This document shows, one piece after another, positions 6,229 through 12,588 of a stretch of DNA of 64,000 nucleotides (positions are counted from its first letter, which is position 1; each line of letters opens with the position of its first letter). This DNA is from a bacterium (GTDB lineage: Bacteria; Electryoneota; Electryoneia; Electryoneales; Electryoneaceae): positions 3,744,001 through 3,808,000 of the forward strand of contig OY769902.1 of the NCBI GenBank assembly GCA_963669175.1, given 5' to 3'. A model generated the notes under the pieces. The model was not told where the DNA came from and searched no databases. It worked only from the letters and a program-made list of their open reading frames with translations. The position numbers and the translations under genes are program-made.

Positions 6229-6400
6229 TCTATTGATTTCTGTTCTATTGAATACTGTTATGACTAGCCTTGTTCCGTATCGGTAAAACTCGTACAATTA
6301 CTGATACTGCTGCACATATCCCGTTGACTGCCTGCCAGTACGCCTGATCAGGGATTGGATGGAACGCCCTCATTTTTTGCTCTCTACCGGGAGAACTGTT

Positions 6401-7423
6401 ATGGATACGCTGAAGCCATCGTTTCGGTTTACTGGTTACATGATCTCGCTAATCATATTCTGGACAATTGTTGTTGGCGCCTCCCTGGTTTGGAACCTAT
6501 ATACCCAATATCGTGAGAGTGAGGAAGCTGCGCGTGTTGAAGCACGAACGTCGATCCGAAAGGACATTCTTTACCGTTACTGGAATGCTAATCACGGTGG
6601 CGTTTACGCCCCTGTAACTGACTGCTCCCCCCCCAATCCCTACCTGAGTTTTATTGAAGATCGTGATATCGTTTCCGAATCAGGGAATCAATATACCATG
6701 ATCAACCCGGCCTATATGACTCGCCAGGTCTTCGAGCTTGGACATGAGAAATTCGGGATTCATGGTCACATAACCAGCTTGAATCCTCTTCGACTGGAGA
6801 ACAAAGCTGATTCATGGGAAACGAAAGCGCTTGAAGCGTTTGAAAGTGGCGCCCCGGAGTATAGTGAAACGATTGATATCGAGGGAATTCCTTATATGCG
6901 TTTGATGATTCCCCTTGAAACCCAGGATCAATGTCTAGGGTGTCATGCATCTCAAGGGTATCAACTGGGCGACATTCGTGGCGGTATCAGCGTTGCTATT
7001 CCGTTGCTCCCCCTGCGAAGAGTGGCAAGAGAACACATCCAGGCGATGGCAATAGGTCATTCCCTGGTATGGCTTGTAGGAATGGTTGGATTGGGATTGG
7101 GCGGAAGAAACCTGCGAAAGAGGTTTGATGAACAGGAACGTGCGGATCGAGAAGCCCAGCGTTCCCAGACAATCACCATGCTGGCAGGCACAATCGCTCA
7201 CGAGTTCAACAATCCCCTGGCCATCATCAAGGGATCTTCGGACCTGCTGACGATGAGTGAAAAACGCACCAATGAATGCGACGCGGCGCTCAAGAAAATC
7301 AGTCGACAGGTGATACGAATGAGTGAGCTGGTTGATAAACTCGGCAAGCTTCACACGTTGAAGGAGATTGATTACGCCCAGGGAGTTAAAATCCTTGATT
7401 TAAATGGCGATGCGAAGTCATAG
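6401..7423 (+). CDS. heme-c (DUF3365-like) sensor with HisKA domain and no HATPase domain
   Basis: TM, periplasmic domain (NPAYMTR, SLNPL, CLGCH, GDIRGGIS), TM, then AHEFNNPL H-box. The protein ends shortly afterwards. Confidence 0.85.
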   Translation: MDTLKPSFRFTGYMISLIIFWTIVVGASLVWNLYTQYRESEEAARVEARTSIRKDILYRYWNANHGGVYAPVTDCSPPNPYLSFIEDRDIVSESGNQYTMINPAYMTRQVFELGHEKFGIHGHITSLNPLRLENKADSWETKALEAFESGAPEYSETIDIEGIPYMRLMIPLETQDQCLGCHASQGYQLGDIRGGISVAIPLLPLRRVAREHIQAMAIGHSLVWLVGMVGLGLGGRNLRKRFDEQERADREAQRSQTITMLAGTIAHEFNNPLAIIKGSSDLLTMSEKRTNECDAALKKISRQVIRMSELVDKLGKLHTLKEIDYAQGVKILDLNGDAKS

Positions 7424-7470
7424 CGGCCCCTGTTATTTAGCTATGGAACAAACTTCAGCCGGTTGTTTTG

Positions 7471-7500
7471 AAAACCTCCCACGCCATCGTGGGAGGTTTT
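7471..7500. terminator. bidirectional intrinsic terminator
   Basis: AAAACCTCCCACG-CCAT-CGTGGGAGGTTTT. Confidence 0.85.
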
Positions 7501-7569
7501 CTTTTGAAGAACACACTGAACCTACTTACGTTTCGGCAAATATTCCGGTAGGTTCCTTTTGTGACTACG

Positions 7570-8400
7570 TCAGTGTTTTCCCGTTTCTGAGACTTCAGTC
7601 TCTTGTTTTTGTTTACTTTCCAGTTCTGGATGATGATGACGCACGATTTTTTGGTATTGGACCACTGTGGCGCGGCCCAGTGACAACGTCCGCATAATCT
7701 CGATTTGTGTCAACCCCTTCTCCATTAATGTCTTGATGTTTTTGTAAGTTCGTAAATAGCGACCCACCGCTTCAAGACTATGTTCCGTCTGCTTTGAGAT
7801 CGCAGGTTCATCCAGGCCCTGTTCATATAACGCAATAATAATTGCCTTGTGTGTCGGTCGACTGCCCTGGTCCAGCATGATCCCTTTTGTAGGCAGGATG
7901 TCATCATGTGTCGCATGGTAGCGTTGCAGGTATTTACCTACCGTGCTTAAGCTGCGATTCATCAGCGTACTCAGCTCTGCATGGCTCAACAGACCGCCCT
8001 GTTCGTACGCGCTTTTCACTAACCGAGCCATTACCTCCACATCACGGTCAACCTGCTTCAGCACATTTTTCTTGCCGTAGTGTCGTTGCACACGTACTTC
8101 GATGTCCTCTTCCGTCACCAGCGGCAGAAAGACGGTCTTCACCGGCACATCCTCCACACGGGTGCCGTAGCTCGGCTTCCCGCAACGGGCATCCGTGGTC
8201 CGCCAGACAACCGTACCCGGAGCACGTTGGGCGATGTCGGGATAGAACTCACGATGCAGCTCCAGGATGTCGTTCGCAAGCATCCCCAACACCTTCCGGC
8301 TGCCCAGGATCTTGTACTCTGTCTCCAGAAGACGGATGATCGCAGCCCGAAACTCCCGTTTCTGCAACGATTCGTAGTGGTTACGATATTCAGGTCGCAT
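7570..8400 (-). CDS. DUF1670-like HTH protein (second gene)
   Basis: AYEQGGLLS..EL..L, PTKG..LDQG...THK and HS.EAV.RY motifs. ATG at 8400 follows GGAGGAGG. Confidence 0.8.
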   Translation of the reverse strand: MRPEYRNHYESLQKREFRAAIIRLLETEYKILGSRKVLGMLANDILELHREFYPDIAQRAPGTVVWRTTDARCGKPSYGTRVEDVPVKTVFLPLVTEEDIEVRVQRHYGKKNVLKQVDRDVEVMARLVKSAYEQGGLLSHAELSTLMNRSLSTVGKYLQRYHATHDDILPTKGIMLDQGSRPTHKAIIIALYEQGLDEPAISKQTEHSLEAVGRYLRTYKNIKTLMEKGLTQIEIMRTLSLGRATVVQYQKIVRHHHPELESKQKQETEVSETGKH

Positions 8401-9226
8401 CGACGCCTCCTCCAGCGGACTCTTTTTTTTCTCCCGCCACCGGATACAACGCCCGTAACTGGTCCAACAGTTCCGAATAAATCGACGGCCATAGATCACC
8501 GTCACGATACTTCTCGAATAATGCAAGATACTCCTCGGCCAGGCGTGGACTAATCTGAAGCAAATGGCACAAGTCCAACGGCTTTGTAAACCCTTTCTCG
8601 ATCAGCAACAACATCCGGCCGAACATGGTCACATACCGACGGATCGCCGCCGCGCTGTGCCGTGTCCGACGCATGATCGTATCGTACGTAAAACCGTTCA
8701 GGTATAACTCCACGATCCGAGACTTGTGCGAGCCCCCCCGTCCGATGTCATGGTCATACCCGCGTGTATGAACGGTCTGACCATCACGAATCAGCGCCTT
8801 TACATCGTTACGGATCGTTCGCACCGACACATGAAGCAGATACGCCAGATCCTCCTGGGTCAGCAACCCGCCCTGTTGGTACGCTTCTTCCGTGACACGC
8901 AATACACGCAGTTGACGCAGAGCCGACGAACCCTGATCCTGAAGAACAGCCATATCGTCGCTGCCGTCCACCAGGGTCAGCACCACACGCTTCTTCTCCT
9001 GCTCCGACAAAGGAAGCCCGTGGCGAGCACGCCGCGAAGCACACCAAAAAAGAAGCTTGCCCGGGGTCTGCGGAATCTCTCCAAACAGACACTCACGGGC
9101 AAGCTCTAAAATCCCTTTGCCAAGCGCCGGTGACAGTTCAAACTCGTCACGCAGACGACTGCGAAACACCCCCTCTGGCGTCTTCGACAAAACACCTTCA
9201 GGTACTGCTTGGACCAATTGGACCAT
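8390..9226 (-). CDS. DUF1670-like HTH protein (first gene)
   Basis: EEAYQQGGLLTQEDLAYLLHVSVRTIR.D, TRG..HDIG.G.SHK and HS..AI.RY motifs. ATG at 9226 follows GGAGG. Confidence 0.8.
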   Translation of the reverse strand: MVQLVQAVPEGVLSKTPEGVFRSRLRDEFELSPALGKGILELARECLFGEIPQTPGKLLFWCASRRARHGLPLSEQEKKRVVLTLVDGSDDMAVLQDQGSSALRQLRVLRVTEEAYQQGGLLTQEDLAYLLHVSVRTIRNDVKALIRDGQTVHTRGYDHDIGRGGSHKSRIVELYLNGFTYDTIMRRTRHSAAAIRRYVTMFGRMLLLIEKGFTKPLDLCHLLQISPRLAEEYLALFEKYRDGDLWPSIYSELLDQLRALYPVAGEKKESAGGGVDAT

Positions 9227-9324
9227 CGCATCCTCCGATAGATGATGACCCGTATCCCTTTGCGATAACATAACCTGAAAACCGCACCAGAAGACAGATC
9301 TAACCACCTACCGGAATATTTTCC

Positions 9325-12300
9325 TTATTTCACCAGGATCATCTTCTGAACCAGTTGTTTCCCGTCTCCTTCCAGCCTGTAGAAGTACGTTCCGGAAGCA
9401 ACTGCGCGTCCATGTGTATCCATCCCGTTCCAGGTTACCACATGGCGTCCGGCATCCTTCACGCCATCAACCAGTTTAACCACCTGGCGCCCCAGCACAT
9501 CATACACGGTCAAGGTCACCGGCATGCGCTGATCCAGTGAGAAACCGATCTGTGTGGACGGGTTGAACGGGTTCGGATATGCTGGCGACAGGGACCATTC
9601 GGTTGGGTGAAGTTGCCTTAAATCGTTCACACCAATCCCAGTGATCTCAATGTGCTGTGCATAGATATTTCTTAAGAATTCAGTATCAGTTGACCGATAG
9701 TCTTCCCATACACAGATAGCCCCATTCGCAGTAGTCGGAGTAATCATAGCATTTACTTGCATTTGGTAAGCCTGCGTTAAAGGCACACCATCGTATTCCG
9801 GTATTCCTTCGACCGGTACTCCTTCCGCATCCAGTTCTGTGCAGTAAAGATCAATAAAGTTGCTTCCAAACACTGATTCCCAAACAAGATAGACACCACC
9901 ATTGCAATCAGCGCTCAGCCTGGATTTTCTGCTATCTGAAAGATCCCGGGTAATCTGAATTCCTGTTTCAGGAACAAGTACAGGAGTTCCATCAAGATCG
10001 TACTTCTGAATGTAGATATCGGCGGAGTTATCCCTGTTTTCGTGCAGCCAGGAAACCCAGAATGATGATCCATCATTCGTCGTAATGCTGTTTATTCGTT
10101 GTCTGTCTTCAACATCTACCAGGGGTATGCCGTTTTCCTCCCAAGCGATTGTACCATCAGAATGAATCAATTGACCGTAAATATCACTATTGCTGTTACC
10201 ATTGCGATTATCAAGCCATGCGATGACTATACCATTTTCCACCTTCACCATAAACGGATATCTACGTCCTTGCTCACCGGAACAGATTGGAGTTTGCCAG
10301 CGAATGGTCCCGTCCTGCGACACACCACTCATATAGATATCACTTGTCCCCGGACCTGAATCTCTACTATATAGAATACCAATTGTTGCGTCAGTGGGTT
10401 CCTGATCTCCGTCTTCAAAGAAGACAATATCATCAAGAGTCTCATCCTCCTCAATTCCTTCGTTCAGGATGATACCTCGTCCGTCTTCACCTTCGAATTG
10501 CATCGAGCCATCAGTGTCTATTTTTTGAAGAAATACATGCTGATAATAGTTTGCTTCGTATTCACCTGTGAACGCGACAAAGATACCACCGTCCGGGGCG
10601 AGTAGCATTGTTGGCGTATAGGTCCCGAAGAAGTCAACTGTTGGGATAACAAGACCTTCGTCACCCCAATCCAGGGTCCCATCGGATAGAATATGTTGAA
10701 AACCAGTTGTTTGGCTATATAGAGGACGCGAATCTTTCCAACCGAGATAAATCCCTCCTTCACCATCGGGAATCATTGTCAATGAGTCGGTTAAGACACT
10801 TTCTTCTGGTGGTCCTTCCGGCAACGGGAAATGCGGTAGGGCACTGATTCCGTTTGCCTCAAACGCAGGCTGCCCGGTTGAGATATCCAGCTTTTGGACA
10901 AAGGGCAGACGGCCATAATGGCGGTACCTGTTATCAATCCACGCAAACCATACTTCTTCAGGATTACTGTGATTAACAGCAATGGCAGAACTAGTTGCAT
11001 TCCCACTTAAACCGGAATAGACTACTACTCCTTCGTCTTCCATCTGAATAGCGCCTGTTTCGAGGTCATGCCTTTGGAGAAATGCTCCCATACTACCTTG
11101 CCGCCATTCTTGCCAAAGAACAATAACGTCTTCGCCAACCTGATGCACTCTGTTCATTTCATAATAGTTGTATGCAGTGTATGCACTGGTTTCTATTCCT
11201 CCTTCAGCACCCCAGTCAGATGTTCCATCCTCGTTGATACGTTGTGTATAGACGTTATACTCATGACTTCTTCCTTCACGACCATCCAGCCAGGTGAAGA
11301 TTGCGCCGCCATTCCCATCAGCTATCCCCTTGATATTATTCTGACTTCCTATTTCATCACATATGGCAATGCCATATTGCTCTTCACCTTCCTCCCCCCA
11401 TTCAAGGACGGGTTGATTTTCTTCATCCATGGTAATTCTCTGCATGTACAAATCCGTGCCGCTTGGCCACTCATAGGTATGGCAGTGCTCCCATGCTAGA
11501 ATGAGTTCACCTTCACCAGCCTGAACCATTGCCTGTCTAGCAACAGAATAGTATTCAAAGCCAGGTTCATGCGGGAATAACTGGAGCCCATTATCATCCC
11601 AATCACTATTTCCATCTGCAGTTACGTGTGCAATCCTGAGCACTGCAGCAACTGAAAGCTGTTCATCATCAATCGCAACTTCTCCATTCCAACTGAAATA
11701 CGCTCCCCCGGCCCCATCAGGTACTGCTCTGATCCATCGTGCATAGTCAACGTCAGTGTCAAGCGCAACCCCGGATGAAGCCCCCCATGCCAGCTCACCT
11801 TCGGTTGAAATCCTGTTCATGTAGATATCATATTCATTTATATCTCTTGTATCGACCCACCCAGCAATTATTCCGCCGTTCCCATCAGGAACAGCACTAT
11901 AACTCTGCGTCCAGATTTCGCCCTGATCCTGATCGCCATCAGCAAAAGGATTACCATTGAGCGTCCAGTTGCCATCCGGAGTGCCATCAGCAAGAATATG
12001 CATCGCATACAGATCGCTATCCAGATTTCTGTCGGTGACCCAAATGACCATTGCCCCACCATCACCGTCATCAAACGCGCATGGATACATTTCCGTTGCA
12101 TTTTCAGTTACTGTAACAGCGACACCGCCATAGTCCGGACTGTTCTCCGGCCATTGGATATCACCTGCACTTGTCACTTTCTGCGCGAAAATATCACTTC
12201 GCTCCAGGATTTGAGAATCATTCCTGAAATCAACCCAGGTAATGATCCAGGTACCATCACTGGCTGCCATGACATAGGGTGACTCCTGGCGACTTCCGGC

Positions 12301-12588
12301 ACCCCGGGCAATTAACAACCCGTTTTCAGCCCATTGTGGTTGCCCCTCTTCATTATAAAGCTGGGCATAAATGTCGTTGTCACCTGTTCTGCAGTCACTC
12401 CAGGCATAGAGAATAAAGTCGCCGTTTACGGCTGAGCAGGACGATGTCCTGCCGTTAGTTGCCATTTCATCGCCCTGACGAATGGGCACACCGTCTTCCG
12501 GCTCCCACAACCGATAGGCAAACGCTGACTGGGAAAGGATTGCGATGGAAATCGCGAGGAAAAGGATGCGAGCAGTTCTGGTAATCAT
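9325..12588 (-). CDS. large secreted repeat protein (probable beta-propeller) with T9SS/FlgD-type C-terminal domain
   Basis: Signal peptide, many DG.GG...W.D.R...DIY.Q repeats, C-terminal YPNPFNP...WNG.D..G..VASGTYF. Confidence 0.85.
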   Translation of the reverse strand: MITRTARILFLAISIAILSQSAFAYRLWEPEDGVPIRQGDEMATNGRTSSCSAVNGDFILYAWSDCRTGDNDIYAQLYNEEGQPQWAENGLLIARGAGSRQESPYVMAASDGTWIITWVDFRNDSQILERSDIFAQKVTSAGDIQWPENSPDYGGVAVTVTENATEMYPCAFDDGDGGAMVIWVTDRNLDSDLYAMHILADGTPDGNWTLNGNPFADGDQDQGEIWTQSYSAVPDGNGGIIAGWVDTRDINEYDIYMNRISTEGELAWGASSGVALDTDVDYARWIRAVPDGAGGAYFSWNGEVAIDDEQLSVAAVLRIAHVTADGNSDWDDNGLQLFPHEPGFEYYSVARQAMVQAGEGELILAWEHCHTYEWPSGTDLYMQRITMDEENQPVLEWGEEGEEQYGIAICDEIGSQNNIKGIADGNGGAIFTWLDGREGRSHEYNVYTQRINEDGTSDWGAEGGIETSAYTAYNYYEMNRVHQVGEDVIVLWQEWRQGSMGAFLQRHDLETGAIQMEDEGVVVYSGLSGNATSSAIAVNHSNPEEVWFAWIDNRYRHYGRLPFVQKLDISTGQPAFEANGISALPHFPLPEGPPEESVLTDSLTMIPDGEGGIYLGWKDSRPLYSQTTGFQHILSDGTLDWGDEGLVIPTVDFFGTYTPTMLLAPDGGIFVAFTGEYEANYYQHVFLQKIDTDGSMQFEGEDGRGIILNEGIEEDETLDDIVFFEDGDQEPTDATIGILYSRDSGPGTSDIYMSGVSQDGTIRWQTPICSGEQGRRYPFMVKVENGIVIAWLDNRNGNSNSDIYGQLIHSDGTIAWEENGIPLVDVEDRQRINSITTNDGSSFWVSWLHENRDNSADIYIQKYDLDGTPVLVPETGIQITRDLSDSRKSRLSADCNGGVYLVWESVFGSNFIDLYCTELDAEGVPVEGIPEYDGVPLTQAYQMQVNAMITPTTANGAICVWEDYRSTDTEFLRNIYAQHIEITGIGVNDLRQLHPTEWSLSPAYPNPFNPSTQIGFSLDQRMPVTLTVYDVLGRQVVKLVDGVKDAGRHVVTWNGMDTHGRAVASGTYFYRLEGDGKQLVQKMILVK

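Follow-up and report, generated by a model that had tools for sequence, protein, structure and literature searches.

Every established family of insertion sequences (IS) is, to our knowledge, defined by a known catalytic type of transposase. Some mobile elements exploit the Xer recombinases of their host, the TnsD-directed insertion of Tn7 at attTn7 is orientation-specific and leaves the host gene functional, and in IS10 translation of the transposase is inhibited by fold-back. Here we describe, in a window of 64,000 nucleotides from a bacterium of the Electryoneaceae (contig OY769902.1, positions 3,744,001 to 3,808,000), a mobile element of the size of an insertion sequence, the sole genes of which are a pair coding for proteins of the DUF1670 family. 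The element occupies positions 7528-9328 of the window (1,801 bp; all positions given without a prefix are window coordinates), where it interrupts the last codon of a gene for a protein secreted by the type IX secretion system (T9SS) and rebuilds both this codon and the stop that follows it. It is an active-looking member of a widespread and apparently undescribed insertion-sequence family, the defining features of which are a pair of DUF1670 genes, inverted repeats of 19 bp and a precise insertion at T9SS cargo gene ends that restores the codon.

All parts of the element and its host gene are read on the minus strand, and we call the end next to the host gene the left end. The host gene codes for a protein of 1087 amino acids (aa), including the rebuilt last codon; it reads through 9325-12588, of which 9329-12588 is host-derived, and its last host-derived bases are the AA at 9330-9329. 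These are followed by the outer left end of the element, ATAA (9325-9328), which supplies the third base of the host Lys codon and a new TAA stop, and immediately past this TAA by the left inverted repeat (IR-L, GGAAAATATTCCGGTAGGT, 9306-9324), made up of a 12-bp palindrome-like core and GGTAGGT. A leader of 79 nt (9227-9305), containing the Shine-Dalgarno sequence GGAGG of the first gene, leads to open reading frame (ORF) A (8390-9226, 278 aa from its ATG), which overlaps ORF B (7570-8400, 276 aa) by 11 nt. The stop of ORF B lies 16 bp from the right inverted repeat (IR-R, 7535-7553), beyond which come the 7 nt of the outer right end (GAAACGT, 7528-7534; mostly TAATAGT or TAAACGT in relatives). 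The 19-nt repeats at 7535-7553 and 9306-9324 are complementary at 18 of 19 positions and are the longest inverted pair within 7000-10000. A first-pass annotation, made from the letters of the window alone, had already described 19-bp terminal inverted repeats with one mismatch around two overlapping paralogous ORFs of 278 and 276 aa, the second of which stops 16 bp from one repeat while the other repeat begins directly after the TAA of the 1087-aa gene, and all of this was confirmed. The bounds are, however, wider than the repeats, by 4 nt on one side (ATAA, 9325-9328) and by 7 nt on the other (7528-7534). That annotation had missed these true ends. It had also missed that the element sits site-specifically within the final codon of a T9SS cargo gene, where it repairs this codon and its stop, and that the original Lys-stop survives at 7522-7527.

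The genome consists of one contig of 5.45 Mb (G000) and contains 8 copies of the element, viz., the window copy and 7 copies of a sister subfamily that are 67-68% identical to it. The sister copies are mutually 99.5-99.9% identical (0-5 differences per 1,799 nt, with 6 variable sites overall), lie at seven other loci with unrelated flanks, and lose their identity at the same bases in each copy. The genome has 16 matches to the Pfam model of DUF1670 (PF07900), which form 8 pairs, and all 16 frames are open; between the two subfamilies the ratio of nonsynonymous to synonymous substitution rates amounts to 0.22 in ORF A and 0.09 in ORF B, the synonymous rate being saturated. The full repeat is found genome-wide solely at the 16 ends of the 8 copies and flanks no other element or gene. 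This restriction to the element ends, along with the conservation of the repeats in related loci, argues that the repeat pair is not due to chance. The pair is also neither fixed nor syntenic, as PF07900 occurs in only one of 40 relatives searched and the 8 copies are at different loci; other DUF1670 pairs carry the same repeats at related loci, and no other element in this genome has them. None of the three conditions that the first-pass annotation had named as refuting it is therefore borne out. A search of a plasmid collection gave no match. Two of the sister copies (L007 and L008) lie 8.9 kb apart within a tandem array of ~8 paralogues of the 1087-aa host gene (G000:C1:1.19-1.22 Mb).

Each copy follows the same layout, in which host sequence NNN AA is followed by ATAA, IR-L (GGAAnnnnTTCCGGTAGGT), a leader of ~79 nt, ORF A and ORF B, 16 nt, IR-R, a 7-mer, and then AAR and a stop codon ahead of the host downstream DNA. 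All 8 genome copies have AAATAA as their left hexamer, whereas the right hexamer is AAATAG in four, AAGTAG in one and AAGTGA in two of the 7 sister copies, and AAGTAG in the window copy. Since the right hexamer varies while the left one is constant, the former must be the host gene's original Lys-stop and the left ATAA a part of the element. In the window, the displaced Lys-stop (AAGTAG, 7522-7527) begins with an AA (7527-7526) that repeats the AA at 9330-9329, and the rebuilt Lys-stop is at 9325-9330.

The same arrangement is seen in relatives from other genomes and metagenomes, among which 89 left and 105 right junctions were readable, with both junctions readable at 83 loci (L139 and L059 were excluded, as the anchor motif lies on unrelated sequence there). 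All 89 left junctions consist of a codon ending in A and a stop, irrespective of the old stop (AAATAA 81, AAATGA 2, AGATAA 2, CGATAA 2, AAATAG 1 and CGATAG 1). The 7-mer at the right junctions is TAATAGT in 47, TAAACGT in 25, TAATAGA in 14 and another sequence in 19, and at 101 of the 105 it is followed by a sense codon and a stop (Lys 92, Arg 6, Gln/Glu 3). With the A that the element brings, the codon again reads as Lys (AAA), Arg (AGA or CGA), Gln or Glu, and the element's own stop comes next. Thus, by supplying the A and the stop, the element leaves the host protein unchanged and re-creates its target. The left and right hexamers share their first 2 nt at 82 of the 83 loci, although 79 of these are uninformative AA/AA pairs and the informative agreements are three only, AG/AG at L052 and L061 and CG/CG at L144. 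The simplest reading of these junctions is that the point of entry apparently lies behind base 2 of the last sense codon and that a 2-bp repeat is left, which could reflect either a staggered cut of the target or a 2-bp crossover core.

In keeping with a re-created target, the right flanks at some loci open with an end of another element. The right flank of the element at L050 opens with the left end of another type of element, seen at L060 in a bin labelled as Thermoplasmatota, which has other repeats (GGCCATATGACCTCCTAGT) and shares the layout (AAATGA, then a 7-mer and AAATAA at the other end). The presence of such a repeat behind the L050 element suggests tandem insertions into the regenerated target. 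In a complete 6.5-Mb chromosome (G041), a distant second DUF1670 pair (292 and 309 aa; L047:3960-5840) lies on the opposite strand directly past the old Lys-stop, and its end reads TATCATATGACC. The flank TATCAtATGA found there is common to about 8-9 other loci, where it comes after the hexamer AAATAG, which suggests that these gene ends also serve a further family of DUF1670 elements. Two side observations concern right flanks. The metagenome contigs L037 and L087 have the right flank in common and differ in the left flank, for which chimeric assembly or recombination between copies are possible explanations, and the right flank of L125 contains a 17-nt palindrome (GGAAAATAAAATTTTCC) that resembles fused end cores.

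The gene ends that serve as targets have a common identity. The C-terminal region of the window's host protein (residues 1004-1084) matches the Pfam families Por_Secre_tail (27.5 bits, cut-off 27), FlgD_ig (33.9 bits) and CHU_C, and the Lys-stop of a T9SS sorting-domain gene adjoins 8 of the 8 copies. Por_Secre_tail is found in all 8 host tails, 7 of which exceed the Pfam cut-off, the remaining one being a sister-copy tail at 21.1 bits. Read along the direction of the ORFs, the upstream gene products of all copies end in YF, further residues, four hydrophobic residues and a final K. A hidden Markov model (HMM) built from the 8 host tails detects the domain in 331 ORFs of the genome, C-terminally in 322. 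The last residue of these is Lys in 252 and Arg in 56, and 322 terminal sorting domains are in themselves an unusually large T9SS cargo set. The sorting-domain Lys-stop ends account for 252 of the 13,974 hexamers made of AAR and a stop, and the chance that 8 of 8 insertions meet them is ~1e-14; on the basis of the 1,204 Lys-ending ORFs of at least 80 aa, again with 252 sorting-domain ends, it is ~4e-6. In other organisms, a Por_Secre_tail match is present in 54 of 56 upstream tails of at least 60 aa. The tetranucleotide GGAA follows 13 of the 322 sorting-domain gene ends of the window's genome against ~1.3 expected; 8 of these are the full copies, and among the other five one retains 14 nt of IR-L only. 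At G000:C1:800637, 2946991 and 2345106, and at the minus-strand end 52104, further sorting-domain genes have AAATAA at their end, behind which either 12-14 nt resemble IR-L or another Lys-stop occurs after 13-15 nt; such ends may be decayed copies or excision scars.

A weight matrix of the target was derived from 60 non-redundant foreign sites reconstructed as empty sites. Its information content is 26 bits: the 30 nt upstream contribute 16.7, the hexamer 7.8 and the 14 nt downstream 1.5. The consensus runs from an A-rich stretch through an ATG at -15 and three NTN codons to AAR and a stop. When applied to the window's genome, sorting-domain gene ends make up 90 of the 98 sites scoring >20 and 46 of the 47 scoring >25. 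As nearly all of the hits are sorting-domain ends, the DNA sequence alone could guide a protein to the target, and the matrix indicates that such sequence would suffice, not which of its determinants are real. No Rfam match was found in the element (7000-9800 searched), and a long guide RNA would not fit into its short noncoding parts. A conserved coding motif repeated across a genome, entered always in a single orientation with the gene kept intact, is also what one might expect of homing, in which the pair would be a site-specific endonuclease and the element would be copied by repair from an occupied paralogue. We consider this very improbable, as there is little upstream DNA similarity between the flanks of the copies (the 56 host tails have a mean column identity of 28% at the protein level) and essentially none downstream (1.5 bits over 14 nt), so that no homologous template for repair exists on that side, and as the terminal inverted repeats and the 2-bp repeat point to transposition or site-specific recombination.

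Among the candidates scored, 1,177 relatives of ORF B were found at E <= 0.001, most of them on contigs of ~1-2 kb, as is usual for collapsed repeats. A scan of species-representative genomes gave 31 loci and a scan of metagenomes gave 143 relatives, 80 of which were kept. ORF B is present in 118 of the 120 loci examined, and the two ends pair at >=13 of 16 positions in 89 of these 118. The metagenome-assembled genomes (MAGs) that hold the loci are labelled as Bacteroidota, Ignavibacteriaceae, Melioribacteraceae, Neomarinimicrobiota, KSB1, Caldithrix, Zixibacteria, Fibrobacteres and Lentisphaeria, along with the one Thermoplasmatota bin. The single match to PF07900 in the 40 relatives searched is on a short contig, directly behind the AAATAA of a sorting-domain gene. 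Besides 7 full copies, the complete chromosome G041 contains two solo ends (L152:1501-1530 and L153:1495-1530): a right end (IR-R, 7-mer, AAATAA and terminator) lies within a sorting-domain gene that is truncated, and a left end follows a Lys-stop. Contigs from another study contain a ~93%-identical copy of the window's subfamily, for which the match breaks at 9330/9331 and at 7520 and the flank reads as a different sorting-domain end. In their sources the homologues are named "hypothetical" or "DUF1670 domain-containing", and the literature searches, the coverage of which lay outside ISfinder and paper supplements, found no published description of a DUF1670 element family.

The window element could instead be a deletion derivative of a known IS without its transposase, or a fixed and no longer mobile regulatory cassette for secretion cargo genes. 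The sub-threshold matches of its helix-turn-helix (HTH) parts to transposase models lend this some colour: the NCBIfam model of IS21 scores 20.9 bits against a cut-off of 160 over 44 residues of the C-terminal HTH of ORF B, transpos_IS630 scores 16.3 bits against 100 over residues 180-239 only, and a PHROG annotated as 'transposase' matches with an E-value of 0.0012 over 50 residues. Yet in ~100 loci the repeats enclose these two ORFs alone (lengths 1.77-2.07 kb), near-identical copies occur at 7 loci, the distribution is patchy with one of 40 relatives positive, and the repeats, as noted above, flank no other gene in the genome; a derivative or cassette of this kind is therefore scarcely credible.

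Both proteins are members of DUF1670, as the first-pass annotation had proposed from their motifs, with scores of 165 bits for ORF A and 161.7 bits for ORF B against a gathering cut-off of 25, and they are paralogues (31% identity over 196 aa). Their HTH parts match the Pfam families HTH_23 and HTH_29. AlphaFold predicts helical proteins, in which an N-terminal domain of ~110 aa contains the sole β-hairpin and is followed by three HTH-like modules; the predicted local distance difference test (pLDDT) score is 76.7 for ORF A and 74.1 for ORF B, and the predicted template modelling score is 0.48 and 0.46, respectively. The best Foldseek matches, all sub-threshold, are MntR/DtxR, sigma factors, TFIIIC and the winged helices of SelB. 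The alignments of both ORFs show many invariant residues outside the HTH helices. Motifs common to the two are T-R/K-G...D.G...S/T-H-K and H-S/T....R-Y, while KP-YG...ED...K.V.LPL...D is conserved in ORF B and CAS..A.HG in ORF A; none of the conserved motifs maps to a known catalytic motif. Invariant positions include Y78, E83, D84 and D99 of ORF B and C62, S64 and H69 of ORF A. By analogy with the paired-like DNA-binding domains of transposases, the two shared motifs may correspond to a linker lying in the minor groove and to a recognition helix. In rare cases a single protein (P0040, P0124 and P0125, 447-507 aa) has the end of ORF A joined to ORF B; these are possibly frameshifted or fused copies. 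The 447-aa homologue bears the source name of a GIY-YIG endonuclease, a name that we rejected because the protein fuses ORF A to ORF B and Pfam shows no match of that kind.

Structure prediction hints that the two proteins may form a complex. The median score of the A-B prediction is 0.37 against 0.01 for the best of 3 controls, with a contact agreement between runs of at least 65% and a partner pLDDT of at least 66. Of 80 solved complexes, 58 attain the mark used for the complex score, as do 2 of 110 pairs that are mismatched; at scores of <=0.60 it is attained by only 7 of the 80 but by both of the mismatches. We further propose that ORF A and ORF B are translationally coupled.

The distance from IR-L to the start of ORF A is ~76-86 nt in most loci. 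The leader contains TAACCGGA sites, as well as TAACCGGAAG and, at the Shine-Dalgarno sequence, CTWACCGGAGG, both of which are like the inner part of the repeat. In an RNAalifold analysis of 58 leaders (L083 and four duplicates were excluded from the leader alignment A3), IR-L pairs with the Shine-Dalgarno region through 11 pairs, 3 of which show compensatory changes (for example, A-U in 29 sequences and U-A in 18). On the consensus structure 93.7% of the cells are paired, against 87.7 +/- 0.8% for shuffled alignments, none of 500 of which reaches this value, and 30-64% for slid partners. The leader of the window copy folds with -45.8 kcal/mol (z -4.5), and the GGA of its Shine-Dalgarno sequence is inside the predicted helix with IR-L. 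This conserved pairing, predicted for transcripts that read in from the host gene, suggests a protection from host read-through, by which such transcripts would be silenced; co-evolving protein-binding sites are an alternative reading.

Based on the above, we hypothesize that the window element is an intact, autonomous and site-specific insertion sequence, and we consider the following mechanism its probable explanation. ORF A and ORF B, being arrays of HTH modules behind a small N-terminal domain, would bind the terminal repeats (the GGAAnnnnTTCC palindrome with GGTAGGT) and would likewise bind the 3' end of sorting-domain genes by way of a degenerate DNA motif of ~26 bits. Joining would take place in one orientation after base 2 of the last sense codon, so that 2 bp (AA, or AG/CG at Arg) come to stand on both sides, and the two proteins would plausibly perform the DNA chemistry of this step themselves. 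The first four bases of the element (A and the stop) rebuild the codon and the stop, by which the host protein is unchanged and the target regenerated. Finally, in read-in transcripts from the host gene, IR-L would pair with the ribosome-binding site of ORF A and the element would stay silent. A bolder form of this hypothesis, which we put forward only tentatively, is that the DUF1670 pair represents a new class of transposase or recombinase without known catalytic folds, which reads a degenerate coding motif of ~25-30 bp and achieves a codon-repairing, neutral and reusable insertion at hundreds of sites per genome.

Several observations weigh against this mechanism. In line with the first-pass annotation, which had seen no known transposase, the searches of Pfam, NCBIfam, PHROGs and the PDB (by sequence and by fold) detected no transposase family or catalytic domain and matched HTH modules only. 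Foldseek returned nothing from the PDB at E <= 0.001 (best values 0.055 and 0.054), and a profile search of the PDB sequences gave 0 matches. Pfam shows no catalytic domain of a resolvase or integrase, some homologues carrying just the resolvase-type HTH_7 (PF02796), and the fold searches gave no recombinase; there is no match to a DEDD, HUH/Y1/Y2 or AAA+ domain in Pfam, nor in NCBIfam for DEDD and HUH. The ESM Atlas yields HTH clusters only, with scores of <=0.80, and PADLOC and PHROGs yield nothing below an E-value of 6e-5, the matches being confined to HTH stretches. No fusion to an enzyme domain was found, just 2 homologues being longer and both of these A-B fusions (DUF1670 and HTH); similarly, in a search with a profile of the N-terminal domain that gave 225 cluster representatives, the best 150 of the 225 are all <=348 aa, have the domain at the N-terminus in nearly all cases and show no fused enzyme domain. 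The annotation's proposal of an autonomous IS-sized element mobilised by a heteromeric DUF1670 recombinase holds in so far as the element is IS-sized and mobile and has a DUF1670 pair as its only genes; the two proteins lack a recognizable catalytic fold or motif, and the heteromer is weakly suggested by the complex predictions.

The same observations favor another explanation, in which the element is mobile and non-autonomous: the DUF1670 pair would recognise the ends and the target, and perhaps regulate, and a host enzyme would cut and join the DNA. Both proteins look like pure DNA-binding arrays, and no catalytic fold, motif or fusion was detected in either of them. We nevertheless consider such a division of labor unlikely. 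The two-gene unit occurs in MAGs labelled with several phyla, and one host enzyme serving all of them would have to be universal; strong purifying selection acts on both ORFs, which show many invariant residues outside the HTH helices; and the ends are shared with no other element in the genome.

Other points against the autonomous site-specific insertion sequence concern its individual steps. The 2-bp duplication rests on the three informative loci, and L057, with 9 nt of left flank at a contig start, is an exception. Two of the 8 target sites of the window's own genome score low on the matrix (-8.4 and -1.0), and thus the matrix misses real determinants of targeting. The covariation between IR-L and the Shine-Dalgarno region could equally come from co-evolving or repeated protein-binding sites, and the leader sequences are related, with the structure derived from the same sequences. 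Among the assembled (Logan) contigs, which cannot show rare forms, none skips the element or joins its two ends, so that neither an empty site nor an excision product or circle was detected there; X5 and X6 contain the complete stretch and may be its source. The one joint listed, 9347 to 9559, falls within the host gene. Finally, no orthologous locus was found by means of the downstream flank (40 relatives) or the host protein (16 relatives), the relatives being too distant for synteny, and the closest same-genus match to the host protein, which belongs to a large paralogue family, has 44% identity.

Outside the element, a perfect 14-bp hairpin with runs of T and A alongside (7470-7501) is presumed to be the terminator of both the host gene and the convergent gene at 6359-7423, and is now 1.8 kb away from the host stop. 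A bidirectional terminator had been annotated at this position in the first pass; the hairpin does exist, but a simple terminator scan did not call it as a terminator. The Rfam search of 7000-9800 gave a single sub-threshold match, to a ctRNA, at this hairpin. A scan for sigma-70 promoters gave 1 site against 1.8 expected and none in the leader. The convergent neighbor (plus strand) codes for a Tll0287-like domain and HisKA with no ATPase domain in the ORF, and is either a fragment or a short form of a sensor kinase.

An active and widespread element with only two HTH-array proteins implies either a new chemistry of DNA breaking and joining in DUF1670 or a host enzyme borrowed across phyla. 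DUF1670 gains a function that can be tested. The choice of target, the last codon of genes that have a secretion signal in common, is unusual; with exact restoration of the protein it is a neutral and self-renewing landing site, and an insertion that restores the protein may explain why annotation has overlooked the element. If the pair does constitute a new enzyme class, the Pfam family DUF1670, including its founding archaeal members, would mark widespread and unrecognised mobile elements. The system could also serve as a protein-guided tool for site-specific insertion in Bacteroidota and their relatives.

A comparison with known systems shows similarities to several of them. Like the window element, IS630/Tc1-mariner elements are small and bounded by terminal inverted repeats; the apparent 2-bp repeat at the target of the window element recalls theirs, and the HTH-linker-HTH arrangement weakly resembles their paired-like region. 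However, the window element lacks a DDE/D domain, has AA, AG or CG rather than TA as its flanking dinucleotide, and has two ORFs and a long target specific to gene ends. IS21 also has two consecutive genes (istA/istB) between inverted repeats, and its model weakly matches the HTH of ORF B, but the DDE core of IstA and the AAA+ domain of IstB are absent here and the two genes are mutual paralogues. IS200/IS605 and IS91 differ in that the element has no match to a HUH transposase and possesses inverted repeats. With Tn7 the element shares an oriented insertion at the 3' end of a conserved gene, a target read from the coding sequence and a gene that stays functional. Tn7 is, in contrast, large, relies on TnsABCDE and inserts downstream of the gene at one site per genome, whereas the element has 1.8 kb and two HTH proteins, enters within the final codon and could use hundreds of sites (322 sorting-domain gene ends in this genome). 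IS110/IS1111 elements are similar in their strongly sequence-specific insertion into a repeated motif and in the noncoding leader upstream of the gene (their seeker RNAs are the subject of 10.1101/2024.04.26.591405). The window element differs from them in having no DEDD transposase, clear terminal inverted repeats, no Rfam match and a leader of only ~79 nt, which is predicted to pair with its own ribosome-binding site and has no target-like loops. A ribosome-binding site predicted to be sequestered by 5' sequence recalls the control of transposase translation by mRNA structure in IS200 and ISPpu9 (PMC4513863, PMC8450116). The difference from IS200, ISPpu9 and IS10 would be that the pairing partner is the terminal repeat itself, and thus only transcripts starting outside the element would be silenced.

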